Assembly (NCBI GenBank): GCA_035533475.1
Contig: DATLTS010000046.1
Coordinates: 2,229 to 66,228 of the forward strand
From: Mycobacteriales bacterium
Lineage (GTDB): Bacteria > Actinomycetota > Actinomycetes > DATLTS01
DNA length: 64,000 nucleotides
Direction of reading: 5' to 3'
The first letter of the stretch is position 1. Every line of letters begins with the position of its first letter. The position numbers were made by a program, and so were the translations under genes. The notes under the pieces were generated by a model. The model worked only from the letters and a program-made list of their open reading frames with translations. It searched no databases and was not told the origin of the DNA. Shown piece by piece: positions 5,187 through 54,437 of this stretch.

Positions 5187-8100
5187 TCCCGTCCCCGCGC
5201 ATGCTCACCCCGTAGAGGGAGTCGGCGGCCTCCATGGTTCGTTTCTGGTGGGTCACCACCAGCAGCTGTGAGGTGTCCTTCAGCTCGGCGAGCAAGTCGA
5301 CCAGGCGCGCCAGGTTCCGGTCGTCGAGCGCCGCCTCGACCTCGTCGAGCACGTAGAACGGCGAGGGCCGGGCCCGGAAGATCGCGACCAACAGCGCGAT
5401 GGCGGTGAGCGAGCGCTCCCCCCCGGACAGCAGAGACAGTCGCTTCACCTTCTTGCCCGGCGGGCGGGCCTCCACGTCCACCCCGCTGGTCAGCAGGTCG
5501 GCGGGGTCGGTGAGCACGAGCCGACCCTCTCCGCCGGGGAAGAGGGTCGCGAACACCTGCCCGAATTCGCGGGCCGTGTCGTGATAGGCGGCAGCGAAGA
5601 CCGCCTCGACCCGGTCGTCTACCTCCTTGACCACGGTCAGCAGGTCCCGGCGGGTGGCCCGCAGGTCCTCGAGCTGCTCGGCGAGGAATTTCTGCCGCTC
5701 CTCCAGCGCGGCGTACTCCTCGAGCGCGAGCGGGTTGACCCGGCCGAGCACGGCGAGGGCACGTTCGGCCGCCCGGGCCCGCTTCTCCTGCTCCTCCCGG
5801 ACGTAGGCGACCGATCCGGCGGCTTCGCGAGCGGGTTCGGCGTCCGCCTCGGTGAGCACGGGGACGGGGGCCTGGGGACCGTACTCGCCGACCAGGGTGG
5901 CCTCGTCGACCCCGTACTCCTCGACCGCCTTCGTGGCGAGGGCCTCGACCCGGGCCCGCTGCTCGGCCCGGAGCAGCTCGTCGCGGTGCACGGCGTCGGT
6001 CAGCGTGGCCAGTTCGGTGGCCAGCTCGCGAACCCGGCCGCGAACTCCGAGCAGCTCACCTTCGCGAACCGTGCGGCCCTCTTCGGCCGCCGCCCGCTCC
6101 CGGGCGGCGGCGGCGAGCGAGGTTTCGACGCTGCGGGCGGCGATCGCACCGGCCCGGGCCACCGCCGCGGCGACAGCGGACTCGCGGGCACGGCGGGCTC
6201 GAGCCGCGACCGCTGCCGCCCGGGCGGCCCGCTCGGCGGCGGCCGCCGCGGCCAGCGCCTGGGCCCGCTCGGTGACCGCGCGGAGCCGCTCCTCGCCGGT
6301 CCGGACCGCGAGCCGCGCATCGACCTCGGCGACCCGGGATTCGGCGCACGCGAGGGCCAGCCGGTCCCGTTCCGCGCTGCCGGGCTCCTCGGCTGCCGGG
6401 GCGGCCTGCGCATTCGCCAGCCGTTCCTCGAGCTCGAGGAGCTCACCCGCCCAGCGTTCCCGGTCCGCCGTGGCCTGGTCGCGGGCTCGGGCCAGCCGTT
6501 CCGTCTCGGCCTGGGCGGCCCGGGCGGCCGCGCCGAGCTGCCCCAGCCGCTCGGCAACCGCGGCCTGCCGAGCGTCGGATTCGTGAAGTTCGCCGAGCGT
6601 CGCATCGAGCTCGACCTGCCACCGGTCGCGCTCCGCGATGGCCGCACCGAGAGCGAAGCGCAGCCGCTCGCAACGATGCCCCGTCTCGACGAGACGGGCG
6701 TCGGCATCGTCGAGGGCGACCTGAACCTCGAGCCGGCTCGGCACCCGAGCCGATCCCCCCGCGGCCCACCCGGCTCCGAGCTGGTCCCCCGCGGCGGTGA
6801 CCGCGCACAGCGACGGGTCGGCCCGAACCACCCGCCGGGCGGCCGCGAGGTCGTCGACGACTACTACGTGGCCGAGCAGCCGACCCAACGCCGCAGAGAA
6901 CTCGGGGGGCGCACTCACGCACTCGAGCGCCCAACGCCCCTCCGGTGCCTGGCCCCGGCGGTCCGGCACCGCTGCGGCTCCGCCCACGAGCAGCCCGACC
7001 CGGCCGGCGTCATCGGCCTTGACCAGCTCGAGTGCCGTCACCGCGCCGTCGACCGACCCGACGGCGATCGCGTCGGCGGCGACCCCCAGGGCCGCGGCGA
7101 GCGCGGTCTCGAAACCCGGCGCGACGGCGAGGATGCTGGCGACCGCGCCGACCAGGTCGGGAAGGCGCTCGCGGGCATCGAGCAGGGCCGCTCCCGCGTC
7201 GCCACGCTCGAGGGACAGCGCGAGGGCCTCGCGGCGGCCCAGCAGCAGGCTGCGGTCGCGCTCGGCCTCCCGCTCCTCCGCCTCGAGCCGGCGAACCTGC
7301 TCGGCCGCGGCCTCGACGGCGGCCGCGGCCGTCTCGTAACGCTCGTCGAGCCCGGCCTCGCCGGCGTCGAGGCCGGCGATGTCGGCTTCGATCGCCTGAA
7401 ACTCGCCCTGCGCCACACCGGCCCGGGTGCTGGCCTCGTCGACCGCCGCCCGCAGCCGTCCGATCTCGGCGTCCGCCGCTGCGGCCCGCGATCGCAGTGC
7501 GGCCACCTGCCCGGTGAGCCGAGCCAGCCCTTCCCGCCGGTCGGCCACGGCCCGCACCGCGGCGACCAGTCGGCTCTCCTCCGCGGCCAACTCGGCCTCG
7601 AGCCCGGCCCGCGCGTCGGCCGCGGCCCGAAGGCTCAGCTGATCCCGGGCCAGCTCCTCCGCCAGCTTCGCCTGCTCGCCGCGGACCGCCGCCGCCTCGG
7701 CGTCCAGCGCGTCCGGGTCGGGACCGGTCCGGTCCGCGTCGTCGGCGGCGGCCAGGTGCCGACCCCGCTCGGCCGCCAACGCCGCGACGCCGCGAAGGCG
7801 CTCGGCGAGGGAGCTGAGTCGATACCAGGTCTCCTGGGCTCGGGACAGCAGCGGGACGGCCTCGAGCAGTTCGGCCTCGAGGCGGGCTTCCCGGGCGGTC
7901 GCCTCGGTGAGCATGCCCTCGACCTCGACCCGTCGCGACCGGATCGCCGTCTCGTCGGCCACCTCGCTGTCCAGTGCCGCGGTGAGCGTGACGAGGTCCT
8001 CGGCGAGCAGCCGGAGCCGGGCGTCGCGGAGGTCTGCCTGGATCACCGCCGCCCGGCGGGCGACTTCGGCCTGCCGCCCGAGCGGTTTGAGCTGACGGCG

Positions 8101-10134: not shown

Positions 10135-10851
10135 TTAGTCCCCCGCGGCCCGCAGCCGCTCGGCCAGGGTCAGCCACGCGGCCTCGGCGGCGCGCTGTTC
10201 GGCTTCCTTCTTGCTCCGGCCATGTCCGGACCCGAGGACGTCGCCGTCGATCCCGACGGTGGCCTCGAAGTTCTTCTGATGGTCGGGGCCGCTCTCGTCG
10301 ACCTTGTAGTCGGGGGCCCCGTACTCCCCGGTCGAAGCCAGCTCCTGAAGCGAGGTCTTCCAGTCGAGGCCGGCCCCACGCTCCACGGCGTCGATGATGA
10401 GCGGATCGAACAGCCGGTGGACGAGTCCGGTGGCGGCGGCGATCCCCTGGTCGACGTAGACCGCCCCGATCAGCGCCTCGAGGGTGTCGGCGAGGATCGA
10501 GGACTTGTCCCGCCCCCCGCTGGTTTCCTCGCCGCGGCCGAGCCGAACCGAATCGCCGAGGTCGAGGCTGCGGGCGACGTCGGCCAGGGCACGGGAATTG
10601 ACCACGGCGGCTCGCAGCTTGGCGAGCTGCCCTTCGGCGAGGTCGGGGTGACGGTGGTAGAGGCTGTCGGTGACGACCAGGCCGAGCACGGCATCGCCGA
10701 GGAACTCCAGCCGCTCATTGGTGGGCAGGCCGCCATGCTCGTAGGCGAAAGACCGGTGGGTCAACGCCTGGCAGAGCAGATCCGGGTCGAGGGTCAACCC
10801 GAGGGTGGCAGCCAGCGCGGTCGGATCGGCTGGCTCCGGGGTTCGGCTCAC
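10135..10851 (-). CDS. rnc: Ribonuclease III
   Basis: Signature motifs [18 protein letters not shown] and EALIGAVY are present, plus a C-terminal dsRBD ([20 protein letters not shown]). The start is inferred near an internal GTG; the 330-aa listed ORF has a spurious upstream extension that overlaps the ACP gene in another frame. Confidence 0.85.
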
Positions 10852-11117
10852 AGCCGGGCGACCGCGTAGTCCACGGCGTCCCCCACGGTGCGCAGATCCT
10901 CGAGATCGCCGTCGTCGATGTGGAACCCGGAAGCCGCCCGCGGGGCGAGCCGCTCCTCGACGATCTCGGCCATCTCGACGAGCGCCAGCGAGTCCGCGCG
11001 CAGGTCCTCGCGGAACGTGCTGTCCCGCCGAACCGTCGCTGGATCTATCTCGAGGACGGTGGCGATCGCGTCGCGGATCACCCCGAACACATCCGGTGGC
11101 CCGTCCGGCGTACTCAC
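10848..11117 (-). CDS. Acyl carrier protein-like (89 aa)
   Basis: Acidic small protein with a phosphopantetheine-attachment-type DSL motif ([19 protein letters not shown]). It sits between plsX and rnc, as in the Bacillus plsX-fab-acpA-rnc-smc-ftsY order. Confidence 0.7.
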
Positions 11118-12223
11118 CGGGCCGCACCCACCGTGCGGCGGGACAGCAGGTCGGCGAGCACCGCCCCGGTCCGCACGACGAGCCCCTCGGTGGCCGCCCG
11201 GGCCGCGATCCGGATGCCGGAGGCGATCGCCCGCGGGTTCGCGGCGCCGTGACCGATCACCGCGACCCCGTTGACGCCGAGCAGGATCGCCCCGCCGAGC
11301 CGGTCCGGCTCGAGCCGCTCGTCGATCCGCGCCGGGCCGTCGATCGCCCCCAGGACCAGCCGGTACATCCCTTCCAGACCCTTGAGCAGGACGTTGCCGG
11401 TGAATCCGTCGGTGACGACGACGTCGGCCCGCTCCCCGAGGGGCACGTCATGACCTTCGACGTTGCCGACGAACCGGATCGGCAGTTCGGCGAGCACCTG
11501 GTGGGCGTCCTTGCGGAGCTGGTCACCCTTGCCCGGCTCCTCGCCCATGGACAGCAGCCCGACCCGCGGGTTCTCGATCCCCAGACCGATCTGGGCGTAG
11601 GCCACACCGGCCATCGCGAACTGGGCGAGCCGGTCCGGATCGGCGTGCACCCCGGCACCGGCGTCGAGCAGGACGACCGGGCCGTGCGCGGCCGGCACTA
11701 CGACGGCCAGGGCCGGCCGGGACATCCCCGGCAGCCGACCGAGTACGAGCAGGGCCGCGGCCACCGCGGCTCCGGTGGATCCCATCGACACGGTGGCGTC
11801 GGCGGCGCCGTCGCGAACCAGCCGGGCCGCGACGCGCACGGTGGCGTCGCGTTTGGCCCGGACCGCGCGGGCCGGATCCTCGGCCATTCCGATCGATTCG
11901 GTGGCCGCGACGACGTCGAGCCGGTCCGCGAGCGGCCGGCCGGCGAGCAGTTTCGCCGCCAGGTCCGGCGGCCCGACCAGGGTGACCGCCAGGTCCGGCA
12001 GCTCGGCGCAGGCGAGCAGGGCGCCGTCGACGACGGCGGCCGGGGCACCCTCACCGCCGAGCAGATCCAGGGCGACGGTGAGCAGCCGGTCCGATCCGCT
12101 CACGGTCAGACGGTGAGGACGCGTCGGCCGTTGTAGAAACCGCAGACGGCGCAGGCGGCGTGCGGCAGCTTGGCCTGCTTGCATCTCGGGCAGTCGACCG
12201 TCGTGGGTGCGGTCGTCTTCCAC
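11114..12223 (-). CDS. plsX: Phosphate acyltransferase PlsX
   Basis: 369 aa with the typical PlsX core ([12 protein letters not shown]..., [28 protein letters not shown]). Lies immediately downstream of rpmF. Confidence 0.9.
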
Positions 12224-12279
12224 TGGGAGCGGCGCGCGCGGGTGTTGCTGCGCGACATTCGGCGTTTCGGGACGGCCAC
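12106..12279 (-). CDS. rpmF: 50S ribosomal protein L32
   Basis: [21 protein letters not shown]...C..C....C motif. GTG start inferred. The listed 160-aa ORF is an upstream extension overlapping the DUF177 gene. Confidence 0.85.
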   Translation of the reverse strand: MAVPKRRMSRSNTRARRSQWKTTAPTTVDCPRCKQAKLPHAACAVCGFYNGRRVLTV

Positions 12280-12281
12280 GG

Positions 12282-12833
12282 TCAACTCTCCTCGTTCTCG
12301 TCGGTCACCAAGCGGAGGGCGGCCCAGCGGGGGTCGGCCTCGACGTGCATGTGGCCCGGTTCGACGTTGTCTAGCCGGGCGCCGCACCCTGGGCACAGGC
12401 CCGGGCACTCCGCCCGGCACAGCGGTGTGAGCGGAAGTGCGAGCACGACCGCGTCCCGGACCGCCGGCTCGAGGTCGATGAGGTCGCCCGCCAACCGGCC
12501 GGTCTCCTCGCCGGCGTCGTCGTACGCGAACAACTCCTGGAGCTCGGCCTCCACCTCGGCGGCGACCGGCTCCAGGCAACGTCCGCACTCGCCGGAAAGC
12601 GGAGCACGGGCGGTTCCCGACACGAGCACCCCCTCGACGACCGCCTCGAGCCTCAGATCGAGTTCGAGATCGGTGCCTTCGGGGACGCCGATGAGCTCGA
12701 GGCCGAACCCGCCCGGCGCCGGGACCGTCCGGCGGACCCGGCGCATCGACCCGGGGCGCCGCCCGAGTTCCCGGGTGTCGAGAACGAGCGGGGCGCGGGG
12801 ATCGAGCCGGGGCGCAGTGTGATCGCGAGGCAT
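12282..12833 (-). CDS. DUF177 (YceD-like) protein
   Basis: 183 aa with a conserved C-terminal CxxC...CxxC region (CRAECPGLCPGCG). It sits in the conserved yceD-rpmF position. Confidence 0.8.
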   Translation of the reverse strand: MPRDHTAPRLDPRAPLVLDTRELGRRPGSMRRVRRTVPAPGGFGLELIGVPEGTDLELDLRLEAVVEGVLVSGTARAPLSGECGRCLEPVAAEVEAELQELFAYDDAGEETGRLAGDLIDLEPAVRDAVVLALPLTPLCRAECPGLCPGCGARLDNVEPGHMHVEADPRWAALRLVTDENEES

Positions 12834-12883
12834 GGTGAGGTTCGGTCTCAGGCAGACCGTAGGGGCATCCTACCGAACGGCGG

Positions 12884-13390
12884 TCAGTGCGGGAGCTCCG
12901 GCTCGTCCGGGTTCTCCTGGAGCCGGCTCAGCTCGTGCTGGCCGGCCAGCTTGGAGCGGCCGCGCTCGACGGCGGCGAGGGTCTTGTTGAGCACGATCTC
13001 GAAGTTCGCGAGCTTCTTGTCGACGTAGTCCTCGACCTCGGCCCGCATCTGGACCGCGGCGTCTTCCGCGTCGCCGACCAGCCGCTCGGCCTCGAGTGCG
13101 GCCTCCGCCACCACCTCGGTCTTCGCGATCAGGCGGGCCCGCTCATCCCGGGCCGCCGCGATGATCCGGTCGGCATCCTGCCTGCCCTCCTCGACCAGCT
13201 GGTCCCGGTCGCGGAGCAGGCGCCGGGCTTGGCTCATCTCCGCCGGCAGCATGGCTCGCAGCTCTTCGAGCTGGTTGAGCAGCTCGACGCGGTTGACCAT
13301 GCACGAGGCGGACATCGGCATCGCCCGCGCCCCTTCGATCAGGCCGACGATCTCGTCCAGCTTGGCCGGTACATCCACGGGACCGGTCAC
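12884..13390 (-). CDS. Conserved coiled-coil protein (Rv2927c/SepIVA-like, ATP-synthase-b-like helix)
   Basis: 168 aa, highly helical (LEELRAMLPAEMSQARRLLRDRDQLVEEGRQDADRIIAAARDERARLI). Position is conserved between coaD and the DUF177 gene in Corynebacteriales. Confidence 0.6.
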   Translation of the reverse strand: MTGPVDVPAKLDEIVGLIEGARAMPMSASCMVNRVELLNQLEELRAMLPAEMSQARRLLRDRDQLVEEGRQDADRIIAAARDERARLIAKTEVVAEAALEAERLVGDAEDAAVQMRAEVEDYVDKKLANFEIVLNKTLAAVERGRSKLAGQHELSRLQENPDEPELPH

Positions 13391-13896
13391 TTCCGGGGGG
13401 TGGGCGGCCGGTCGGCGGCGTAGCGCGAGGCAACTCGGTCGGTGAGCCGGGTGAGCACGCTGAGCGGCACCAGTCCGGACACGTCCCCACCATAGGTCGC
13501 GACCTCCCGGACGAGGCTCGACGAGAGGAAACTGTAGAGCGGGTTGGTCGGCATGAACAGCGTCTCCACCCCGGCGAGGCTGTGGTTCATCTGGCCCATC
13601 TGAAGCTCGTAGTCGAAGTCGCTGACGGCCCGCAGGCCCTTGACGGCGACCTGGATCGACCGATCCCGGCAGAAGTCGACGAGCAGTCCGTAGAAGCTGG
13701 CGACGGTGACGTTGGGGTACTCGGCGACCACCTCACGCAGCATCTCCATCCGCTCGTCCACGTCGAACAGGCTGCTCTTCGACTTGTTGACGAGAACGGC
13801 CACGACGACCTCGTCGAACAGCCGGCTGGCCCGGCCGATGATGTCGAGATGACCATTGGTGACCGGGTCGAACGACCCGGGGCAGACCGCCCGTCG
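13387..13896 (-). CDS. coaD: Phosphopantetheine adenylyltransferase
   Basis: AVCPGSFDPVTNGHLDII H/T-x-G-H motif, with ...SSSLVRE near the C-terminus. Start taken at the internal ATG (MRRAVCPGSFDP). Confidence 0.9.
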   Translation of the reverse strand, partial: RRAVCPGSFDPVTNGHLDIIGRASRLFDEVVVAVLVNKSKSSLFDVDERMEMLREVVAEYPNVTVASFYGLLVDFCRDRSIQVAVKGLRAVSDFDYELQMGQMNHSLAGVETLFMPTNPLYSFLSSSLVREVATYGGDVSGLVPLSVLTRLTDRVASRYAADRPPTPRK

Positions 13897-13910
13897 CACG
13901 CGCGTCCTCC

Positions 13911-14486
13911 TCAGCACGCCTCCGGCGGGGCGGCGGCGCGACCGTACCAAAGCCGAGCTTCACCGTAACGGCGGTCCCGGTCGGGGACCACCCCGGTGGG
14001 CCACCGCCAAGCGCCGTCCCGGACGGCCCGCTCCACGACGACGACCGCCCCGGCCGCCAACCAGCCACCGACCCGGAGTCGGCTCACCGTCGCCGCCAGC
14101 TCCTCGTCCCCTACCGCGTAGGGCGGGTCGGCGAAGGCGACGTCGAAGCGCTCGGGCGCGCCGGCGAGGTAGCGCCGCACGGCGAGCGGACGCACGACGG
14201 CACCGGGCAACCCGAGCCCGCGGGCATTGTCCGTCGCGGTCGCCACCGCCGTCCGGTCGGACTCGACGAGCACCACCCGCGCGGCGCCGCGGGACAGCGC
14301 TTCGAGCCCCACGGCGCCGGACCCGGCGTAGAGGTCGAGGAAACGGGCACCGGCGAGCGGGCCTCGAAGCGCCTCCAGAGTGGAGAACAGCCCCTCCCGG
14401 GCCCGGGCCGAGGTGGGTCGAGTCCGCTCCCCCGACGGCACGGCCAGCCGCCGGCCCCCGGCCGCCCCGGCGATGAGCCGGGTCAC
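13911..14486 (-). CDS. rsmD: 16S rRNA (guanine966-N2)-methyltransferase RsmD
   Basis: VTRLIAGAAGGRRL...DLYAGSGAVGLEALSRGA...VFADPPY signature. The GTG start overlaps the recG stop (GTGA). The upstream part of the listed 299-aa ORF is low-complexity R/G-rich and rejected. Confidence 0.85.
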   Translation of the reverse strand: MTRLIAGAAGGRRLAVPSGERTRPTSARAREGLFSTLEALRGPLAGARFLDLYAGSGAVGLEALSRGAARVVLVESDRTAVATATDNARGLGLPGAVVRPLAVRRYLAGAPERFDVAFADPPYAVGDEELAATVSRLRVGGWLAAGAVVVVERAVRDGAWRWPTGVVPDRDRRYGEARLWYGRAAAPPEAC

Positions 14487-16627
14487 GCCTTCTCCAGAAA
14501 CTCGGCGCGATCCTCGTCGAGGCTGGCCTCGACCGCCCGGGCCAGCTCCGGGTGACCGGCCAGCCCGGGGTCGGCCGCCACCAACGCGAGGGCCTCGGCC
14601 CGGGCCGCCTCGATCACGTCGCGGTGGCGCAACACCTCGAGCAGCCGCAGCCTCTTCTTCCGGCCGGACTGGGCCTCGCCGAGCACGTCGCCCTCCCGCC
14701 GCTGCTGGAGGTCGAGCTCGGCCAGCACGAATCCGTCGAGGGTCTCGGCGACCGCGTCGATCCGATCCCGGGCCGGCGTTCCGGCGGCGGCGGAGGTGAC
14801 GAGCAGGCACAGCCCGGCAGCGCTGCCCCGGCCGACCCGCCCGCGCAGCTGGTGCAGCTGAGAGACCCCGAAACGGTCCGCGTCGAGCACGACCATGACC
14901 GTGGCGTTTGCGACGTCGACCCCGACCTCGATCACGGTGGTCGCGACCAGGACGTCGATCCGTCCCGCCGCGAACGAGGTCATGACGTCGTCCTTCGCCT
15001 CGGCCGGGAGGCGACCGTGCAGGGCCTCGACGCGCAGCCCGGCCAACTCTCGCTCACGCAACCCGGCCAGGACGTCGAGCACCGCGGCGCTCCCCTCGGC
15101 CTGCTCCTCCTCGCCGGCCGCCGTCGCGGCGTCGATCCGCGGGCAGACGACGTAGACCTGATGGCCGGCGGCCACCTCTTCGGTGACCCGCTGCCAGCTT
15201 CGCTCCAGCCAGGCGGGCTTCTCGCGGGCCGGTACGACCGACGTGGCGATCGGCGACCGGCCGGCCGGCAGTTCGGTGAGCACGCTGGTGTCGAGATCGC
15301 CGAACACGGTCATCGCCACCGTTCGCGGGATCGGCGTGGCCGTCATGACCAGCAGGTGCGGCGGGCGCGCCGCCTTGGCCCGCAACGCGTCGCGCTGTTC
15401 GACCCCGAACCGGTGCTGCTCGTCGACCACGACCAGGCCGAGATCGGCGAACTCCACGCTCTCCTCGAGCAATGCGTGGGTGCCGATGACCAGTCCGGCG
15501 CTCCCGTTCGCCGCCGCCGCGAGGGCATCCCGGCGGGCGGCGGCGCCGAGCGAGCCGGTGAGCAGCGCGATGCCGGTGGCCCGGTCGTCGCCGCCGAGCT
15601 GACCAGCCAGGGCGAGCGGCCCGAGCAGTTCAGCGATCGAGCGCGCGTGTTGATGTGCCAGCACCTCGGTCGGGGCGAGGAGCGCCGCCTGCCCGCCTGC
15701 ATCGACGACGGTCAGCATCGCCCGAAGCGCCACCACCGTCTTGCCGCTGCCGACTTCGCCCTGAAGCAGTCGGTGCATCGGGTGCTCGCCGGCCAGTTCG
15801 GCCAGAATCGTCTCGGAGACCGCATGCTGACCGGCCGTGAGGGCGAACGGCAGCTGGGCGTCGAATCCGGCGAGCAAGCCGTCGGGACGGGGCCGGCGTG
15901 GCGTCGCCGGCTGGGCTCGGGCCGCTGCCCGGCGGCCGGCGAGCGCGACCTGGAGAAAGAAGGCCTCGTCCCAGATCAGGCGTTGCCTGGCTCGTTCGAT
16001 CTCGGCCCGCGACTCCGGGCGGTGCACCAGCTGCAGGGCTTCGGCCAGTCCGATCAGCCCGTGCCGGTCACGCACGTCGGCCGGCACTGGATCCGCCAGG
16101 TCCTGGAGGCCGTCCAGCACGATCCGGACCGCTCGACTGATCGCCCAGGTGTTCGCCGCCGCCCCGGCCGGGTAGATCGGGATCAGCGGGCGGGCGAACT
16201 CGGCGATGTCCTCCTCGTCCTTGCCGTCGATCAGCAGGTAAGCCGGGTGGGAGAGCTGGCGAACCCTGTTGAAGACCTCGACCTTCCCGGCGAACAGGCC
16301 GCGGCGGCCGGGCGCCAACCGATCGAGCAGCCACCTCTTGGCGTTGAAGAAGGTCAGGACCAGCTTGCCGGTGCCGTCGGTGAGCTCGACCTTCAGCAGG
16401 CTTCCGGGGCGGCTCGAGTAGGGGATCAGTGCGCTCTTGTCGATGTCGGCGACCACGGTCGCGTATTCGCCGACCTGGAGCGAGCCGAGGTCGGTGAGCT
16501 GCCCGCGCTCCGCGTAGCGGCGCGGGTAGTGGTGCAGCAGATCGTTGACGGTCCGGATGTCGAGCCCGGCCAGCGCGTTGGCCGTCTTGTCGCCAACGAC
16601 TCGCTTGAGCGGCTCGTCGAGTCTCAC
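14483..16627 (-). CDS. recG: ATP-dependent DNA helicase RecG
   Basis: Wedge/OB region is present. Helicase motifs include LQGEVGSGKTVVALRAML, DEQHRFGVEQR and TATPIPRT, with a C-terminal helicase domain. The start near 16627 (VRLDEPLKRVVGDKTANALAGLDIRTVNDLLHHYPRRY) is approximate. Confidence 0.9.
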   Translation of the reverse strand: MRLDEPLKRVVGDKTANALAGLDIRTVNDLLHHYPRRYAERGQLTDLGSLQVGEYATVVADIDKSALIPYSSRPGSLLKVELTDGTGKLVLTFFNAKRWLLDRLAPGRRGLFAGKVEVFNRVRQLSHPAYLLIDGKDEEDIAEFARPLIPIYPAGAAANTWAISRAVRIVLDGLQDLADPVPADVRDRHGLIGLAEALQLVHRPESRAEIERARQRLIWDEAFFLQVALAGRRAAARAQPATPRRPRPDGLLAGFDAQLPFALTAGQHAVSETILAELAGEHPMHRLLQGEVGSGKTVVALRAMLTVVDAGGQAALLAPTEVLAHQHARSIAELLGPLALAGQLGGDDRATGIALLTGSLGAAARRDALAAAANGSAGLVIGTHALLEESVEFADLGLVVVDEQHRFGVEQRDALRAKAARPPHLLVMTATPIPRTVAMTVFGDLDTSVLTELPAGRSPIATSVVPAREKPAWLERSWQRVTEEVAAGHQVYVVCPRIDAATAAGEEEQAEGSAAVLDVLAGLRERELAGLRVEALHGRLPAEAKDDVMTSFAAGRIDVLVATTVIEVGVDVANATVMVVLDADRFGVSQLHQLRGRVGRGSAAGLCLLVTSAAAGTPARDRIDAVAETLDGFVLAELDLQQRREGDVLGEAQSGRKKRLRLLEVLRHRDVIEAARAEALALVAADPGLAGHPELARAVEASLDEDRAEFLEKA

Positions 16628-18177
16628 TCGACGCCGAGCAACAGCGGTCGGTCCGGCTGGCCGCCGGCGTAGATCACGGTTTCGACGCCCGGCCGGACCG
16701 CCTCGAGGTAGGCGGCGATCTCGCCGCCTACCTCCGGATCCGCCGCACCGCCGGTGATCAGCGTCACCAGCTCTCCGCCGCCGATGAGCATCCGGTCGAG
16801 CACCCCGGTGGCCACGTCTCGAACCGAGCTGCCGACGACGACGATCTCGCCCTCGACCAGCCCGAGCACGTCGCCCCTGGAGCACGGTCCGGCCGGGGTC
16901 GAGGACTCCCGGACCGCGCTGGTGACCTCCGCCCAGCGGGTTGCACCGGCGGCGGCCGTCATCGCGATGACGTCGTCGGCGAAGCGTCGGCGCGGGTCGT
17001 GGACCGCCAGCGCGGCGAGCCCCTGCACCGGGGACTGGGTCGGGATCACCTCGACCGCGCGCCCCTCTTCGCGCGCCCGGGCCGCAGCGGTGTCGGCGAA
17101 CGGCCGGACCGCGGGGTCGTTGGGGAGCAAGGCGACCTGGTCGGCTCCGGTAGCCCGGACGACCGCGAGCAGGTCGGCCGCCGACGGCGGGCGTACGCCG
17201 TCGATCACGGCGGCGCCCTCGGCGCGGAAGAGCCCGGCCAGCCCTTCGCCCGGCGCCACGGCGACAACCGCCGCGCCGACCGCGGGCTGCGCCGGCGCGT
17301 CAGCGAACCGGGTCACGACGATCCGGTGCGGCCGGCCGGCCTCGATCCCGGCCTCGACCGCCGCACCGACGTCGTTGACGTGCACATGGACCGTCCACAG
17401 GCCGTCCCCGCCGACCACGACTAGGGAGTCGCCGAGACGGCCGAGCCGCTCGCGCAGGCCGGCCACCGACGTCTCCGGCGCGTCGAGCAGGTACTGGACC
17501 TCGTACCCGAACGCGAGACTGCCCGACTCCCGGGCCCGGACGGACGGCGCGGGGCCGGCGTTGACCGGGGTGCCACCCGGTTGGCCGCCGCAGACCGCGG
17601 CCAGCGCGTCCAGCAGCACGACGAGGCCCCGGCCGCCGGCGTCGACGACACCGGCCAGGGCGGCGAGCTTCTGCGGGCTGCGGACCAGCTCCTCCGCGGC
17701 CCCCCGCGCGGCGGCGTCCGCCACTCCGGCGAGGTCGTCACCGGCGACCGCGGCGGCTGCCTCGGCGGCGGCCCGGGCCACCGACAGGACGGTACCTTCG
17801 ACCGGAGTGGCGACGGCGGCGTAGGCGAGATCCGCGGCGCGACCCAGCGCCACCTCCAGCTCGCGGCCACCGGCCGGACCGGCGCCGAACACCTCAGCGA
17901 GACCGCGGAGCAGCTCGCTGAGGATGACTCCGGAATTGCCGCGCGCACCGAGCAGAGCGCCGCGGGCCATCGCGGCGACCGTCCCCGGCAGATCCGAGCC
18001 GACGGGTGGTAGTGCCTCGACCACCGCGGCCATCGTGAGCGCGAGATTCGTTCCGGTGTCGCCGTCGGGGACCGGGTATACGTTCAGCCCGTCGATCTCC
18101 GCACGAGCCCGCTGGAGGGCTTCGAGTCCGGCGATGCACCACCGTCGGATGTCGTCGGCGTCGAGGCGGTCGAGCAC
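16624..18177 (-). CDS. DAK2 domain fusion protein (YloV family)
   Basis: N-terminal DAK2 domain (LNVYPVPDGDTGTNL) followed by a DegV-like C-terminal region, the conserved partner divergent from rpmB. Start set at the GTG of VLDRLDADDIRRW. The listed 834-aa ORF runs through rpmB and thiD and is not real upstream of ~18300. Confidence 0.7.
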   Translation of the reverse strand: MLDRLDADDIRRWCIAGLEALQRARAEIDGLNVYPVPDGDTGTNLALTMAAVVEALPPVGSDLPGTVAAMARGALLGARGNSGVILSELLRGLAEVFGAGPAGGRELEVALGRAADLAYAAVATPVEGTVLSVARAAAEAAAAVAGDDLAGVADAAARGAAEELVRSPQKLAALAGVVDAGGRGLVVLLDALAAVCGGQPGGTPVNAGPAPSVRARESGSLAFGYEVQYLLDAPETSVAGLRERLGRLGDSLVVVGGDGLWTVHVHVNDVGAAVEAGIEAGRPHRIVVTRFADAPAQPAVGAAVVAVAPGEGLAGLFRAEGAAVIDGVRPPSAADLLAVVRATGADQVALLPNDPAVRPFADTAAARAREEGRAVEVIPTQSPVQGLAALAVHDPRRRFADDVIAMTAAAGATRWAEVTSAVRESSTPAGPCSRGDVLGLVEGEIVVVGSSVRDVATGVLDRMLIGGGELVTLITGGAADPEVGGEIAAYLEAVRPGVETVIYAGGQPDRPLLLGVE

Positions 18178-18310
18178 AGCGGCCAGCGTAGCCGCGGGTA
18201 GCGACGGTTCGGTTGGTCCCGGCGACCCCGGTCGGCTAGTCTGGATCCGCTTGATCGCACCGCCGGTCGACGAATCCCGCGCCGGCTGACCACGTTCAGG
18301 AGAGATCCCG

Positions 18311-18499
18311 TTGGCTGCCGTCTGCGACGTCTGTGGCAAGGGGCCCGGTTTCGGCATGTCCGTGTCCCACTCCCACCGTCGCACCAGGCGCCGCTGGAAC
18401 CCGAACATCCAAACCGTGCACGCGGTCGTCGGCGGCACGCGGCGCCGGCTCAACACCTGCACGTCCTGCCTCAAGGCCGGCAAGGTCAGCCGGGGGTAG
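18311..18499 (+). CDS. rpmB: 50S ribosomal protein L28
   Basis: 62 aa, [34 protein letters not shown]..., a canonical L28 sequence. Confidence 0.9.
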
Positions 18500-19283
18500 T
18501 CCGCCACCGCCAGCCGTGGTCGACCGGGCCGATGCCCTGTCCCAGCGGGAACCCGGCGGCGATCGCGCCCGTCACGTAATCCTTCGCGGCTCGCGCCGCG
18601 GCCGGGACGTCCAGCCCGCGGGCGAGACCCGCCGCCAGTGCAGAGGCCAACGTGCAGCCGGTGCCGTGCGTGTGCCGGCGATCGAGCCGACCGGCCCGCA
18701 ACTCGAGGTGCGAACTGCCATCGGTGAGCAGGTCCACCGCGTCGCCCGACAAGTGGCCGCCGGTGACAAGGACCCAGCGCGGGCCCAGGGCGAGCACCGC
18801 GTCGGCCGCGCGGGACAGATCGGATTCCGCGTCGACGCGCAGGCCGGTGAGCATCTCGACCTCGTACAGGTTCGGCGTCACCACCGTCGCCAGCGGGAGA
18901 AGCTCGGTCCGGACGGTGGCCACGGCTTCCGGGGCGAGTAGCGGGTCGCCGTGCTTGGAGACGCCGACCGGGTCCACGACGAGCGGTGCCGTGATCCCGG
19001 ACAAGCCCTCGGCCACCGCCGACACCAGTTCCGGGGAGGCGAGCATCCCCGTTTTGACCGCGTCGACCCCGATGTCCCCGAGGACGCTCGCCAGCTGGGC
19101 GCGGACCGCCTCGACCGGTAGCTCCCATACCCCCTGGACACCGACCGAGTTCTGCGCGGTCACCGCGGTGATCACCGACATCGCGTGCACCCCGAAGGCG
19201 AGCATCGTCTTGAGGTCCGCCTGGATCCCAGCGCCACCCCCGGAATCCGAGCCGGCGATCGCGAGCACCCGCGGCGGGGTCAC
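18486..19283 (-). CDS. thiD: Hydroxymethylpyrimidine/phosphomethylpyrimidine kinase
   Basis: [23 protein letters not shown]..., VVDPV and [10 protein letters not shown] motifs are present. The GTG start overlaps the thiL stop. Confidence 0.85.
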
Positions 19284-20269
19284 CCGGGGTCCGCGAAGTG
19301 CTCGTGCCCGGGCGCCCCGGGTGGCTCGCGATCGATCCAGGCGAGTCCGCTGCCGGCGAGGACCCTGCCGACCTGCGTCACCGGCCACGGTCGGGCCAGC
19401 CCGGCGATCCGCACCGCAACGCGCCGCGCATCCTGATCCGACAGCGTCGCAGCGAACGCGTGGTCGTCCCCACCGCCGGCCAGCCAGCTGAGCGGATCGA
19501 TGCCCAGCCGTGCGGCGGCGGTGGCGAGCTCGGGGCCCATCGGCAGATCCGCGGCGGACAGTTCGATCCGGACGGCGGACCGCGTGGCCACGTGCCCGAG
19601 GTCGCGGGCCAGCCCGTCGCTCACATCGATCATCGAACTGGCGCCGGCCTCGGCCAGCTGGAGCGCCGCCGGGTAGGCCACAACCGGCTGCCGGTGCGCC
19701 TGGGCGAGCCGGGCCAGGTCCGGCTCGTGGCCGAGCCCGGCCCGCAGCACGGCGAGTCCGGCCGCCGCCCAGCCCAGTCGGCCGACGACGAGGACCACGT
19801 CCCCGGGCCGGGCTCCGGCGCGGGTCACCGGAGCCCGCCCGGCCAGGTCGCCGAGCGCGGTGACCGAGACGACCAGCCGGTCGCAGCGAACCACGTCGCC
19901 GCCGGCCACCGCCGCGCCACCGGCCATCGCCTCGTCCCGCAGCCCGTCGGCCAGCGCCTCGGCCCAGGCGACGGGGAGGGCGGCCGGCGCGGCCAGGCCG
20001 ACGAGTAGCGCGGTCGGAGCGGCTCCCATCGCGGCGACGTCGGCGAGGTTCTGTGCCGCCGCCTTGCGGCCGACGTCGTAACCGCTGGACAGGTCACGAT
20101 CGAAGTGCACGTCCTCGACCAGCAGGTCGGTGGTCGCGACCACCCGGCCGTCCGGCGCCCGAACGACCGCCGCGTCGTCACCTGGCCCGAGCACGATCCC
20201 CGGCCCGGACGGCAACCGGGCGATGATCCGCTCGATCAGGGCGAACTCGCCGATGTCGGCGAGCGTCAA
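19280..20269 (-). CDS. thiL: Thiamine-monophosphate kinase
   Basis: [15 protein letters not shown]..., DDAAVV and [10 protein letters not shown] are present with an AIR-synthase-related fold. Adjacent to and upstream of thiD. Confidence 0.85.
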
Positions 20270-20355
20270 GGGCTCCGATACCGAGATGACAGCCTCCCCG
20301 ATAGATCGGATAGCGTGCCACTTCCAGTGCCGAGCGCCCGGGAGGTGGCACAGCC

Positions 20356-20592
20356 GTGACGGTTCAGGCCTACATCCTCATCCAGACCGAGGTCGGCAAG
20401 GCAGCGAAGGTCGCGCGCGACATCGCGGCCATCAAGGGCGTCACGATGGCCGAAGACGTCACCGGCCCCTACGACGTCATCGTCCGGGCCGAGGCCCGCA
20501 ACGTCGACGAGCTCGGCAAGATGGTCGTCGCGCGGGTCCAGGGCGTGGACGGCATCACCCGGACGCTCACCTGCCCGATCGTTCACCTCTGA
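20356..20592 (+). CDS. Lrp/AsnC ligand-binding (RAM) domain protein, stand-alone (78 aa)
   Basis: MTVQAYILIQTEVGKAAKVARDIAAIKGV...YDVIVRAEARNVDELGKMV..., typical of AsnC C-terminal domain-only proteins. Confidence 0.7.
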   Translation: MTVQAYILIQTEVGKAAKVARDIAAIKGVTMAEDVTGPYDVIVRAEARNVDELGKMVVARVQGVDGITRTLTCPIVHL

Positions 20593-46694: not shown

Positions 46695-48146
46695 ATGCCC
46701 CGATGGCTGACCATTCTCGGTCAGAATTTCTCGCTGCCCGATCCCGACGTCGTCGAGGAGATCTCGCGCCAGTTCCGGCAGATCTCCGATAACCTGGAGC
46801 AGTCCGGCACGCGCCTCACCAAGCTCGGACCCACCCACGACTGGGGTCATTGGTCCGGCTCCGCCGCGGACGCGTTCGAGCAGAAGCTCGGGCCGCTGCC
46901 TGGTGACCTGAATCAGGCATCCGGCTCCTTCGGCAAGGTCGCTTGGGCGCTGTGGGAGTACGGCAACACGCTGCGCGACGTCATCACCTCCATCCAGACG
47001 CTCGCCGGGCATGTCGACGATGCCCAGTCCGAGCTCTCGTCCATCCAGGCCGCGGCCGCCGCTAATACCGACCCCACCCAGCAACGCGCCTGGCAGGACA
47101 AGATCACCCAGGCACAGCAGGCAGTTGCCTCGCACGCGACGCGGCTCCAGCAGTTGCGGGACGACCTGGATTCGGCAGCGCACCTCGTCGAGGGTCGGAT
47201 CCAGGACGCCATCAACATCGGCATCACCGGCTTCAGCTCGTTCGGCCGGCACTGGATCGGTCGAACTCAGAACGCGGTTGGTGAGGTTGCTGGCTTCGTC
47301 GTGCATCCGATCGAGGATCTACCCGGGGCCATCGCCGCCGAGTGGAATCACCCGTCATGGCAGAACCTGGCTCGGGTGGTGGGTGACGTCGCGGGCATCG
47401 TTGGACTAGTCGCTCTGGTCATTCCCGGGCTGGGCGAGGCGCTCATGGTTGTGTCGATGGGCCTCGATGCCGGCAAGCTCGCCCTGGACACGGGGGCGGT
47501 TGTCAGCGGGGAAACACACAGCTGGGGCAACGTCGCCCTCGACGGAATCTCGTTGGCCCTCGATGGCACGGCACTGCACGCGAGCGGGGCGGCCGAAGGT
47601 GAGACTGTGGCCAACGATGCGCTCGGCGCCGGCCAGTCGGATCTGAACCAGGCCGTCCGGGCCAACGTGAAGGCACAGAGCAGCCTGTCTCGGGCGATCG
47701 CGAGCGGACGTTCCGACGGACTGATCGCATCTCTGCGCGACGGCGCCGACGGGTCACTGGTGCATCTCGAGTCGATGCGCAACAAGGTGTCGATGCTCGA
47801 CGACGCCCGGACGGCGGCACAGACGGGTGCCGGCGCCTGGCGGACCGGGTTCCGCAGCTCGCTGAAATTCGACTTCGGCGGGGTCGGCGAAACGTATCAG
47901 GCGTGGCGGCACCTCCAGTGGAACACGCTCGCCCGCAGGTATCTCGGTGAATTCACCGGCGTGGACCTCTCCGGGGCTGTGCACAGCGCAGGTGTCGTTC
48001 GGATCGAAAACCTGAACTTCGCCGTGCATCAGCTCCGAGCTGCGAGCGGCGGCATGGTCGGGGGCGACGATAACTTCTCTGCTGTCCTTGGAGATCCGCT
48101 CGCGGGCCTCCGCGCTCTCGGAGTCAAGGTGGGGGCCGCATCATGA
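46695..48146 (+). CDS. Large WXG-like N-terminal domain protein (483 aa): candidate T7SS effector/polymorphic toxin with central hydrophobic hairpin
   Basis: N-terminal ~100 aa mimic a WXG100 fold with a W-x-G motif (THDWGHWSGSAADAFEQKL). A hydrophobic segment follows (VAGIVGLVALVIPGLGEALMVVSMGL). The C-terminal ~200-aa domain has no recognisable family. It begins 5 nt after the previous gene. Confidence 0.65.
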   Translation: MPRWLTILGQNFSLPDPDVVEEISRQFRQISDNLEQSGTRLTKLGPTHDWGHWSGSAADAFEQKLGPLPGDLNQASGSFGKVAWALWEYGNTLRDVITSIQTLAGHVDDAQSELSSIQAAAAANTDPTQQRAWQDKITQAQQAVASHATRLQQLRDDLDSAAHLVEGRIQDAINIGITGFSSFGRHWIGRTQNAVGEVAGFVVHPIEDLPGAIAAEWNHPSWQNLARVVGDVAGIVGLVALVIPGLGEALMVVSMGLDAGKLALDTGAVVSGETHSWGNVALDGISLALDGTALHASGAAEGETVANDALGAGQSDLNQAVRANVKAQSSLSRAIASGRSDGLIASLRDGADGSLVHLESMRNKVSMLDDARTAAQTGAGAWRTGFRSSLKFDFGGVGETYQAWRHLQWNTLARRYLGEFTGVDLSGAVHSAGVVRIENLNFAVHQLRAASGGMVGGDDNFSAVLGDPLAGLRALGVKVGAAS

Positions 48147-48787
48147 CCGCAACGACGCACATCGCACCGAGCGGGATCCGGCTGGCGACACCCGGGGACT
48201 GGTTCGAGGTGCCGACCTCCGAAGACCCCTCCGAGATCGCACGTCAGGTAGACGCACTGGTCGTCTCCCGGCCCGGGCTTGAAGGGCAGCGCGAGGTGCT
48301 CACCGGGCTGCTCGGCGTCCTCGGGGCCACGGCCGCAGCGAGCCGTGCCCTATGCGTGCGGGCAGTGCTCGTCGACGCTCCCGGTGGCCAGCTGCCGGCC
48401 TTTCTCATGGCCTCTATCGGGGAGGCGCCCGCGGGCGGTGTGGCGGCTATCCCCGGGGAAGACGCTTCTTGGCTGAGCCGGACCTTCGATTTGCCGATGG
48501 GCCCGACGGTCCGTCTCGAGGGGGTCGGCGAAACCCCCCGTGGTGCCGACGGCGGCGCAGTGGCCGTTTCACTCGTGCAGTACCACGCTGCCGTTCCGAG
48601 CACCGACCGGCTGCTCAGCCTGGTGTTTTTCACACCCGCGCTAGGGCTGATGGACACCGTGCTACGGGAGATCTTCCACGGCATCGCCTGCAGCGTCGAG
48701 TTCGAGGCCGACAACCCGGACCCCGAAGGTACGGCCGCGATGGCGCCGACCCATGGGCGTTCCGCCCCGGACGGCCTGACCTCCTGA
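48143..48787 (+). CDS. Hypothetical cytoplasmic protein (214 aa): candidate cognate immunity protein/chaperone
   Basis: Start overlaps the stop of the candidate effector (ATGA), and its stop overlaps the eccC start. No transmembrane segment and no known family. Confidence 0.5.
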   Translation: MTATTHIAPSGIRLATPGDWFEVPTSEDPSEIARQVDALVVSRPGLEGQREVLTGLLGVLGATAAASRALCVRAVLVDAPGGQLPAFLMASIGEAPAGGVAAIPGEDASWLSRTFDLPMGPTVRLEGVGETPRGADGGAVAVSLVQYHAAVPSTDRLLSLVFFTPALGLMDTVLREIFHGIACSVEFEADNPDPEGTAAMAPTHGRSAPDGLTS

Positions 48788-53109: not shown

Positions 53110-53601
53110 TCAGTGCCGCCGCAGAGCCCCCCGCAGGCGCCCCCATCGGCCATGCATTACCGGTTGGCCTGCTGGCGCTGCGCCAGCGGGCCGATCCGCC
53201 CGCATCCGGGTTCGCGTCGGATCCGCCACGGGTTCGGACTGCTGTATTTCCGGCCGGGCGGCTACGCTCGCCGGCCGGAAATGCACCCATACGTCGCCAA
53301 AGCGCAGCGAGCACGCGTCGATCAGGGCGGTTCCGTCCGGCCCAACGGCGGTCTCCCCCAGCCACGTGCCGTTCGCGGACCCGAGGTCACGCAACACGAC
53401 AGCGGAAGCGGTCACTTCGAGTTCGGCGTGACGACGGGAGACGGACCGGTCTGGGTCCAGCTCGGTGAGATCGACATCCGGTGGCACCGGCATCCGCTCG
53501 TCGTAGCGTCCGACAACTGTCATCCCGGGCGGCAGGAACCATACCGATGGTCCGGCCGCGAGGGACGATTCGGTCGCCCGTTGGGTCACGGCAGCGAGCA
53601 T
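53110..53601 (-). CDS. Stand-alone FHA-domain protein
   Basis: GMTVVGRYDERMPVPPDVDLTELDPDRSVSRRHAELEVTASAVVLRDLGSANGTWL matches the FHA consensus (G-R, S-R-x-H, N-G-T). It is convergent with the eccC end. The start could be further upstream (up to 53844) through an Arg-rich stretch. Confidence 0.7.
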   Translation of the reverse strand: MLAAVTQRATESSLAAGPSVWFLPPGMTVVGRYDERMPVPPDVDLTELDPDRSVSRRHAELEVTASAVVLRDLGSANGTWLGETAVGPDGTALIDACSLRFGDVWVHFRPASVAARPEIQQSEPVADPTRTRMRADRPAGAAPAGQPVMHGRWGRLRGALRRH

Positions 53602-53630
53602 ACGGTGATCGAACCTCAGGGGGCGCAATC

Positions 53631-54437
53631 GTGAGCGACGACCCGACCGCAACCCGCGGCCGGTCCAAGCCACCTGCATCAGAGCCGCCGGCGGAAGGGC
53701 AGCCCAGCAACGACCCGACCGCAACCCGCGGCCGGTCCAAGCCGGCGCCGGCACCGCCTGTATCCGAGCCGCCGGCGGAGCGGCAGGCCGCCGCAGATCC
53801 GACCGCAACCCGCGGTCGGCTCGCTCCACAGTCCTCGCCGCCACCCGACGGCGCGCCCCAGCCTGACCCGCAAGGGACCGTGCTCCGGCGTCGCGCGCCG
53901 GGGTCCTTCCCGGCCGCGGAAGTCAAGGTCGCTCCAGCACTGGCCTCCGCCCCGATGGCACCGGTCGTACTGCCCGATCGTCGGATCGAGCCACCCGTCT
54001 ACCGGCCTCCCGGCAGCCGGCGCAGGCTGGTCGCTGCCGTCGGTGGTTTGCTTCTCGCGGGCGCCGGAGTGGCCCTCGGATACGCATTGCATCCGCAGCC
54101 AACGCCCCCGGCCCGGGCCACGGTCGCACCGCCGACCCTGTCGGGGGTGGTCGCTTCCGGTCCGGCCGGAGCTCTGCACTGCCCATCAGCGCTCCTGCAC
54201 GTGGTCGGAACTATCACGGTCACCGCCGCGACCACGGTTCGCTACCAGTGGCGCCTTCCGGATGGCACCTTCACGGCCGTGCAAACCCTCACCGCGGCAG
54301 GCCCCGGACCGGTCACCGCCACACTGAGCTACACCCTGTCCGGTCACGGACAGCAAACCGGCGTGGCCACTCTGCACGTGCTGACACCCGCGGACGTTTA
54401 CTCCAACCCAGTGGCCGTCGCCTACCGGTGCCCATGA
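53631..54437 (+). CDS. Proline-rich single-pass membrane protein with 3x DPTATRGR(S/L)KP tandem repeats and a C-terminal extracytoplasmic beta-rich domain
   Basis: GTG start with an aggggg RBS. Three ~60-bp direct repeats (53640-53830) encode DPTATRGRSKP...SEPPAE. A transmembrane helix follows (LVAAVGGLLLAGAGVALGYAL), then a Cys-containing C-terminal domain. The opposite-strand reading of the same repeats is also open, so strand assignment is not certain. Confidence 0.55.
   Translation: MSDDPTATRGRSKPPASEPPAEGQPSNDPTATRGRSKPAPAPPVSEPPAERQAAADPTATRGRLAPQSSPPPDGAPQPDPQGTVLRRRAPGSFPAAEVKVAPALASAPMAPVVLPDRRIEPPVYRPPGSRRRLVAAVGGLLLAGAGVALGYALHPQPTPPARATVAPPTLSGVVASGPAGALHCPSALLHVVGTITVTAATTVRYQWRLPDGTFTAVQTLTAAGPGPVTATLSYTLSGHGQQTGVATLHVLTPADVYSNPVAVAYRCP

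Follow-up and report, generated by a model that had tools for sequence, protein, structure and literature searches.

A compact type VII secretion system (T7SS) gene cluster was found in a 64,000-nt stretch of contig DATLTS010000046.1, which belongs to a Mycobacteriales metagenome-assembled genome (MAG); the whole of this stretch is referred to as the window. Two adjacent genes of the cluster encode proteins of 483 and 214 amino acids (aa), here called X and Y, which were studied for domain anatomy, conserved gene order, evolutionary rates and modelled structure. We favor, at a probability of about one half, a reading in which X is a conserved, dedicated T7SS substrate targeted for export together with a small partner protein, Y shields a hydrophobic hairpin of X, and the hairpin then inserts into a membrane. 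A preliminary description of the same DNA had proposed that X is a polymorphic toxin and Y its immunity protein. That description was right about the WXG targeting domain of T7SS type in X and about its place in a T7SS operon with a coupled EssC/EccC-type ATPase gene, but the toxin and immunity assignments were not supported.

The targeting domain occupies the first 180 residues of X (Table 1). It matched the Pfam families PF21725 (T7SS_signal; residues 16-173, 30.0 bits, cut-off 27) and PF06013 (WXG100; residues 16-65, 29.1 bits, cut-off 27.3), and at E ≤ 0.01 the same families were matched by 31/40 and 29/40 relatives, respectively. The W-x-G motif first pointed out in the preliminary description (W53-S-G55) is not a chance occurrence, as shown by these matches and by its conservation in 118 relatives, of which 99% retain W53 and 96% G55; F61, L68, P69 and L72 also fall in the set of positions conserved at 91-99%. 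An AlphaFold2 (AF2) model of X, built on 40 relatives, has a beta-hairpin at residues 3-14 followed by helices at 17-44, 56-123 and 127-176, the longest helix of the domain being given as 57 residues in the AF2 account. The block mean predicted local distance difference test score (pLDDT) is above 90 over most of this length, and W53-x-G55 lies in the loop between the first two helices. The helical WXG domain proposed earlier thus stands, at a length of ~180 aa and not the ~100 aa given for it. The modelled fold is PPE-like and combines a WxG motif with a small upstream partner that carries a YxxxD/E sequence; in PE/PPE and Esx dimers YxxxD/E, a motif for T7SS secretion, is paired with WxG. 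Membership in the PPE sequence family was not found for X (PF00823; 1 of the 40 relatives matched, E 0.0035), nor was there a match to the LXG family PF04740, either for X at E ≤ 0.1 or in the 40 relatives at E ≤ 0.01. A sequence-profile search of the PDB gave weak EsxA matches only. Kinship with EspA/EspE was considered from PF18879 (E 0.039 for X, 3/40 relatives at E ≥ 0.004) and rejected as unsupported.

The hydrophobic hairpin of X, also noted in the preliminary description, proved to be real by three measures. Kyte-Doolittle hydropathy exceeds 1.5 across residues ~224-259; the AF2 model places helices at 222-242 and 247-271, joined by IPGLGE, with mean pLDDT of 77-92 in 10-residue blocks; and a comparable hydrophobic stretch is present in 102/120 full-length relatives. 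The hairpin is part of a second confidently modelled block of four helices, at residues ~200-295 (block mean pLDDT 72-93), and by pairwise identity no third of the protein is better conserved than residues 200-300. Throughout the family the 20-residue flanks of the hairpin are acidic (1.6 and 1.1 K+R, 3.1 and 3.2 D+E), the hydrophobic stretch of ~43 aa contains ~2.7 acidic residues, and the mean net charge of the protein is ~-18. Judged by composition, acidic flanks and a negative charge of this kind fit those typical of exported or soluble proteins, unlike those of membrane proteins inserted by Sec/YidC. The flanks argue against stable membrane insertion under the positive-inside rule, and their charge would fit an exported protein that hides its hydrophobic hairpin until a membrane is met.

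Y was described earlier as a soluble protein of unrecognised family, and this agrees with our results: by sequence it is cytoplasmic, and it matched nothing in Pfam or NCBIfam. A signal peptide is lacking, as are transmembrane and N-terminal hydrophobic segments, and since the last of these is absent Y is predicted to be cytoplasmic. A PDB sequence search gave nothing credible. The AF2 model of Y is an alpha/beta sandwich (pLDDT 78.9, predicted template modelling score 0.76) whose fold is of the PsbP/Mog1 type, the type to which the Eag chaperones of type VI secretion systems (T6SS) belong. When the model was compared with known folds, the scores were 12.1 for 3lyd, an uncharacterised Jonesia protein, 11.3 for LpqN, 10.4 for PA0094 (1tu1; EagT6), 10.2 for PsbP, 9.7 for both Mog1 and Tsi3, 9.6 for SciW and 9.0 for TplEi. 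Tsi3 and TplEi are periplasmic T6SS immunity proteins, some of which also have the PsbP/Mog1 fold. T6SS Eag chaperones are reported to keep the transmembrane helices of effectors soluble (PMC7773334, PMC12881460). We found no report in the literature of an Eag-like or DUF1795-like protein associated with a T7SS.

Relatives of X were collected by an exhaustive search of 1.84 billion cluster representatives at E ≤ 0.001; a word-indexed homologue search had yielded one distant relative of X and one close relative of Y. The exhaustive search matched 196 clusters, mostly of proteins 400-520 aa long that align over query residues 1 to ~320. They share one architecture, with the WxG near residues 50-53 and the hydrophobic stretch near 225-290. 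Members with a named source are all from MAGs or metagenomes, namely Candidatus Dormibacteria, uncultured Actinomycetes and the Mycobacteriales MAG studied here, and are annotated 'hypothetical' or 'YukE'.

The genomic context of X and Y was then compared across other loci recovered from independent assemblies and labelled L004 to L017, which derive from MAGs of uncultured Actinomycetota or labelled Dormibacteria; context statistics rest on 10 of these, and not on hundreds. A single peptide pattern taken from an 8-sequence alignment recovered 2 loci from genome contigs and 2 from metagenome contigs. The order WXG100 gene, gene for a ~100-aa YxxxD/E protein, X, Y is found in the window and in L005, L006, L007, L010, L012, L014, L015 and L017, and in every one of these an EssC gene is adjacent; L004, L013 and L016 have the module in partial form. 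Wherever the flanks are long enough, the gene adjoining the X-Y module encodes an EssC/EccC-type ATPase with an FHA domain (FHA-EssC). The arrangement of the window (EsxA, ~100-aa protein, X, Y, FHA-EssC) recurs in L010/L011 and L017. Elsewhere the same elements are permuted: L007 has FHA-EssC, EsxA, a 99-aa protein, X, a 111-aa protein, Y, PP2C, FHA and kinase; L012 has EssC, EsxA, a 101-aa protein, X and Y; L014 has EsxA, a 97-aa protein, X and Y, with a convergent FHA-EssC gene and a kinase; L015 has kinase, FHA-EssC, EsxA, a 101-aa protein, X and Y; in L005 and L006 the X-Y cassette is divergent from essC; and L016 has the ~100-aa protein, X and Y, with EssC not on the sequence covered. 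Y follows X in 10/10 other loci with downstream sequence, the full-length Y genes giving E-values of 1e-102 to 4e-15 with a hidden Markov model (HMM) of Y, and L013 and L004 giving partial matches. A homologue of the ~100-aa protein lies directly 5' to the X homologue in every locus; several of these have weak DUF6317 matches, and the YxxxD/E motif is present in 7/7 loci (YAKTE, YGKAE, YDQAE, YGQTD, YEHTD, YRGTE and YGTTD). In all loci the X-Y pair is single-copy and inside the core operon.

In one sub-lineage an extra gene of 108-111 aa, of unrecognised family, stands between X and Y (coordinates in Table 1); the window has no such gene, and its X and Y overlap directly. A further observation concerns the labels of two loci. 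L005 is assigned to 'uncultured Actinomycetes bacterium' and L006 to 'Candidatus Dormibacteraeota bacterium', with 52-88% protein identity across the cluster; one of the two taxonomic labels is probably imprecise, and the phylum range of the family is therefore uncertain.

Mean pairwise identities place X and Y beside the secretion machinery. They are 51% for EsxA (7 loci), 40% for EssC, 36% for the ~100-aa partner and 32% for Y, and across 8 loci 35% for X residues 200-300, 30% for X residues 1-180 and 20% for the X tail. The divergence of X and Y is thus close to that of the ~100-aa partner and a little greater than that of EssC, and because the mean identities are comparable the two can be said to track the machinery. 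In this respect Y follows the conserved regions of X, at 30-35%, rather than the tail.

The tail of X, residues 301-483, is rich in Ala, Gly and Ser. What had been called a C-terminal domain is neither confidently folded nor conserved: mean pLDDT in 10-residue blocks is 28-64, and none of the tail columns is more than 50% conserved in 118 relatives. A C-terminal motif, 'SPaaV..qHv.F', was seen in the 40 closest relatives and dropped when it failed in the 118. No Pfam or NCBIfam match was found past residue ~180 of X, and no Pfam toxin family matched the C-terminus of X or of 40 relatives. Tails past the hairpin are mostly 100-230 aa long, and 48/113 of them are interlinked by BLAST; the X tail found no partner when compared with the other family tails by BLAST. 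The X-family HMM nevertheless aligns end-to-end with members from the fetched loci, X itself spanning positions 1-428 of ~435. Tail identity is 66% for the closest pair (L005/L006, whose N-terminal regions are 52% identical), 24-27% at middle distances and 7-31%, mostly 10-20%, for the remainder. Abrupt cassette replacement is the defining trait of polymorphic toxins. The divergence of the tail is instead the gradual drift of a weakly constrained region, with no swapping of unrelated domains, and we propose that the tail is a flexible appendage rather than an enzymatic toxin domain.

These results bear on the possibility that X is an antibacterial T7SS toxin, for example a membrane-depolarising one of the TspA/TelE type, and Y its cognate immunity protein. 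A targeting domain, a small helical upstream gene and a coupled downstream gene make up the LXG/Tap toxin layout, and T7SS toxins with helical N-termini, Tap/Lap partners and downstream immunity genes are documented in Actinomycetota (PMC13444075), so that the layout seen in the preliminary description is of a known kind. The hairpin could form pores, as the TelE C-terminus is reported to do; Y accompanies X without exception, and because Tsi3 and TplEi share its fold Y could have a neutralising, immunity-like role. The X-Y pair nevertheless departs from the toxin layout in being conserved, single-copy, confined to the core operon, free of a toxin domain and provided with a cytoplasmic partner of Eag-like fold. 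A scan of 40 members gave no toxin domain, the family is uniform in length and architecture with gradual, non-modular divergence of the tail, and no arrays of orphan immunity genes were seen in the L007, L010/L011, L014 and L015 contexts. The sole candidate active element of X is the membrane hairpin, and Y has neither a signal peptide nor a transmembrane segment, whereas immunity to membrane-acting T7SS toxins is normally conferred by a membrane protein or lipoprotein suited to the compartment of the target (PMC13444075). Y also diverges like the conserved parts of X and like the machinery, unlike the variable tail. It had been argued earlier that conservation of Y independently of X would speak against the pairing; Y in fact always travels with X, but such invariable linkage would be expected of a chaperone as well as of an immunity protein. 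On balance we consider a toxin-immunity pair of this kind quite unlikely.

In the mechanism that we prefer, the ~180-aa WXG/PPE-like domain of X would pair with the 97-aa YxxxD/E protein encoded just upstream, and the two would form a composite secretion signal in the style of PE/PPE, recognised by EssC. Y would bind and shield the hairpin in the cytoplasm before export, in the manner of an Eag chaperone. Once exported, the hairpin would insert into a membrane of the producer's envelope or of a target cell and act there as a pore or as an element resembling a translocator. We infer these pairing, binding, export and insertion steps from the arrangement and likenesses described above. Several points weigh against the scheme. 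The Pfam margins for X are small, ~2-3 bits over the cut-offs; BAR domains and PPE proteins fit the X model equally well, so that the likeness to PPE is partly one generic to long helical bundles; and none of 11 Y homologues had a credible Pfam match, including to DUF1795. In addition, no other obvious polytopic membrane partner for EssC was found within ±10 kb.

Since no such partner lies near EssC, a structural role for X is possible. X would then be a membrane-embedded T7SS subunit that replaces EssB/EsaA or EccD/EccE, with Y as an assembly factor; the hairpin would be anchored in the producer's cytoplasmic membrane and the WXG-like domain would dock on EssC as a pseudo-substrate or activator. 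There is one X per cluster, it evolves at roughly the pace of EssC, and its best conserved third is the one that holds the hairpin. Acidic flanks on both sides and a net charge of ~-18 are contrary to the positive-inside rule, however, and the combination of a WxG domain and a YxxxD/E partner marks a substrate. The membrane Ser/Thr kinase of the cluster is also more likely than X to be the EssB-like partner of FHA-EssC; an EssB-like role has likewise been proposed for T7SSc and T7SSd kinases (Garrett, Higginson and Palmer 2024, PMC11217815), and kinases flank the FHA-EssC gene in L007, L014 and L015 as well. We regard a structural subunit as unlikely.

A more specific form of the substrate reading, which we put forward tentatively and well below the general one, is that X and Y are a translocator-chaperone pair of an undescribed minimal FHA-EssC T7SS of uncultured Actinomycetota and Dormibacteria-labelled lineages, in which the hairpin of X, a universally conserved substrate, forms a distal pore. 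Such a pore, located in the envelope of the producer itself or in a target cell, would be analogous to type III secretion translocators (IpaB, for example), which have class II chaperones. Y would then be the first Eag-like chaperone of transmembrane helices to work with a T7SS.

A last alternative is that X is a non-toxic conserved Esx substrate, resembling AesB or PPE proteins, that acts through its flexible, surface-exposed tail in some interaction- or defence-related role, the hairpin being a mere envelope anchor and Y an unrelated regulator. The long, Ala/Gly/Ser-rich and poorly modelled tail would suit this, and AesA and AesB of Schaalia odontolytica, as described in a 2026 preprint (PMC13622651), are Esx substrates encoded in their cluster with helical N-termini, the C-terminus of AesB being disordered. 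The MoxR, DUF58, PP2C, FHA and kinase genes of L007 resemble the sensing pathway of that preprint. On the other side, no tail motif is conserved in 118 relatives and residues 200-300 are better conserved than the tail, and we judge this alternative improbable.

The X-Y pair was compared with characterised systems. With PE/PPE-EspG of T7SSa it shares a ~100-aa YxxxD/E partner just upstream, a dedicated, co-encoded soluble cytoplasmic partner and a variable, poorly structured C-terminal region; it differs in the lack of PPE sequence membership noted above, in the conserved hairpin and in an ATPase that has an FHA domain and scores best on a Firmicute EssC model. The T7SSb LXG/Lap toxins (TspA/TsaI, TelE/TipE) likewise combine a helical N-terminal targeting domain and a hydrophobic, membrane-active region with small helical genes upstream and a closely linked gene downstream. 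X has no PF04740 domain, however, its family is not polymorphic, the pair is in the core operon everywhere, and Y is a soluble cytoplasmic protein and not a membrane immunity protein as TipE is reported to be. Y resembles the T6SS Eag proteins (EagT6/PA0094, SciW; DUF1795), which act on prePAAR effectors with transmembrane helices, in being cytoplasmic and in having a putative client with conserved hydrophobic helices that have to be kept soluble until export; the differences are the secretion system and phyla, the missing DUF1795 match, the size of Y (~190-214 aa versus ~145-150) and the position of its gene, which is downstream, whereas the Eag gene is upstream of the effector.

With T7SSd of Actinomycetota (PMC11217815) the cluster shares an EssC-like ATPase that bears an N-terminal FHA domain, a protein of the WXG100 type and a Ser/Thr kinase in the membrane, counterparts of TsdC, TsdA and TsdD, and in T7SSd, as here, no homologue of the ubiquitin-like EsaB was seen. 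The T7SSd components described so far do not include X and Y, and the hosts are uncultured soil-type lineages as opposed to Olsenella or Bifidobacterium (PMC11217815). A giant Sec-exported Ig-domain protein like TsdI was not found within ±10 kb. AesA/AesB (PMC13622651) are alike in being conserved, cluster-encoded Esx substrates with helical N-terminal bundles, in AesB's C-terminal part, which AlphaFold cannot model, and in the signalling genes, for kinase, phosphatase and FHA proteins, that adjoin the esx genes; a hydrophobic hairpin or a PsbP-fold partner is not described there, and the likeness is one of description. We found no literature report of a T7SS in Dormibacterota.

The genes of the cluster are listed in Table 1. 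Five of them, encoding the EsxA-like protein, the 97-aa protein, X, Y and the EssC/EccC-type ATPase, are packed head-to-tail on the + strand. The overlap of X and Y (ATGA, 48143-48146) and the coupling of Y to the ATPase gene (TGATG), both reported in the preliminary description, were confirmed. The G+C content is ~70% across the window and, at third codon positions (GC3), 0.81 for both X and Y and 0.80-0.91 for their neighbours; since all five genes fall in the range 0.80-0.91, they can be taken as real coding genes. The family HMMs found a single copy each of X and Y in the window. No EccB, EccD, EccE, MycP, EssA, EssB or EsaA was present among the gene calls within ±10 kb, and the genes 5' to the cluster are unrelated ones of acyl-CoA metabolism. 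Far from the cluster, positions 6001-8000 have the G+C maximum of the window, 0.777 compared with ~0.70 elsewhere.

Table 1. Features of the X-Y cluster in the window and of related loci. Coordinates without a locus label are those of the window.
Feature	Coordinates	Strand	Evidence or remarks
EsxA-like WXG100 protein, 98 aa	46072..46368	+	PF06013 78.5 bits, TIGR03930 71 bits; first gene of operon; motifs WxG (DWQG) and C-terminal YxxxE (YAETE)
WXG100-like helical protein, 97 aa	46397..46690	+	PF06013 weak, 17 bits; C-terminal YAKTE; proposed PE/EsxB/Lap-like co-secretion partner of X
X, 483 aa	46695..48146	+	VNG13_11305, publicly 'hypothetical protein'
X residues 1-180, WXG/PPE-like T7SS targeting domain	46695..47234	+	beta-hairpin and three long helices, W53-x-G55
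X residues 222-271, hydrophobic helix-PGLGE-helix hairpin	47358..47507	+	hydropathy, AF2, conservation
X residues 301-483, Ala/Gly/Ser-rich tail	47595..48143	+	low-confidence model, poor conservation
Y, 214 aa, alpha/beta, predicted cytoplasmic	48143..48787	+	VNG13_11310, publicly 'hypothetical protein'
EssC/EccC-type T7SS ATPase, 1440 aa	48787..53109	+	PF00498 (one N-terminal FHA), PF01580 FtsK/SpoIIIE repeats
Small FHA-domain protein	53110..53601	-	PF00498 E 3e-11
Proline-rich single-pass membrane protein, 268 aa	53631..54437	+	sequence; no Pfam match
Membrane Ser/Thr protein kinase, 870-910 aa	54450..57182	-	PF00069 171 bits
Extra gene between X and Y, L007	L007:9669-10004
Extra gene between X and Y, L005	L005:11375-11701
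Extra gene between X and Y, L008	L008:688-1023
Extra gene between X and Y, L009	L009:2070-2405
Ubiquitin-like conjugation genes, L014	L014:1-4589		JAB, ThiF/E1, two UQ_con/E2-like genes, FHA protein
Ubiquitin-like conjugation genes, L015	L015:1-388, 13158-14027		UQ_con, Prok-RING protein

The best NCBIfam match of the ATPase was to T7_EssCb_Firm (522 bits), below its cut-off, and the EccCa and EccCb models were also matched below cut-off; the cluster may represent a T7SS subtype outside the published a-j scheme. In L010 (4949-8889) and L011 (4204-8144) EssC is called as two open reading frames (ORFs) of 915 and 359 aa, the second starting inside ATPase-like sequence, and this could be either a natural split of the EccCa/EccCb type or an assembly frameshift.

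The small FHA protein on the minus strand is probably part of phospho-threonine signalling in the cluster. Over the same DNA the public annotation calls a 160-aa + strand ORF (53152-53634) that has no Pfam match; GC3 cannot separate the two, but the minus-strand FHA gene is probably the real one, missed in the public call. The kinase has a large C-terminal region past its transmembrane segments. Between these genes, the 268-aa protein, which sits among the FHA protein, FHA-EssC and the kinase and has no obvious counterpart in the other loci, contains in its N-terminal part three near-identical repeats, DPTATRGR(S/L)(K/A)P. The threonines of the repeats could be phospho-docking sites for FHA domains, and the protein may be a TsdH-like docking component for kinase and FHA proteins, although its membership in the system is uncertain.

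Other loci have additions of their own. On the essC side of L005 (1530-4910, minus strand) and L006 (781-4138, minus strand) there is a second cassette consisting of a WXG100 gene, genes for a 103-aa and a ~444-aa protein and then genes for proteins of 185 and 239/256 aa. The ~444-aa protein matches the X-family HMM in its N-terminal WXG domain only, and in L006 it is encoded in two pieces and there is a duplicate of the WXG100 gene; this could be a truly variable effector cassette. In two distant loci, L014 and L015, prokaryotic ubiquitin-like conjugation genes adjoin the T7SS cluster. In L007, 3' to Y (10848-20579), there are genes for PP2C, a 517-aa FHA protein, a Ser/Thr kinase, a MoxR AAA+ protein, DUF58, a TgpA transglutaminase and a protein of >2100 aa with Big_9/fn3 repeats, a set that resembles the Esx-linked MoxR/vWA/kinase/FHA threat-sensing pathway called 'Esr' (PMC13622651).

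For annotation, the case of X and Y teaches that an N-terminus of WXG type with a small overlapping gene behind it does not suffice for calling a polymorphic toxin and its immunity protein. Were X after all a conserved pore-forming toxin and Y its neutraliser, the pair would still be a new actinobacterial effector family. If our preferred reading is correct, this operon, with its roughly five conserved genes and, in several loci, neighbouring genes for kinases and FHA proteins, would be among the simplest T7SSs known, with an obligatory membrane-inserting substrate and a chaperone fold so far linked only to type VI secretion. The pair would offer a tractable model for how hydrophobic T7SS substrates stay soluble and reach the ATPase, and for the nature of the exit or entry pore beyond EssC, and it would extend T7SS diversity past the T7SSa-j scheme into uncultured soil lineages.

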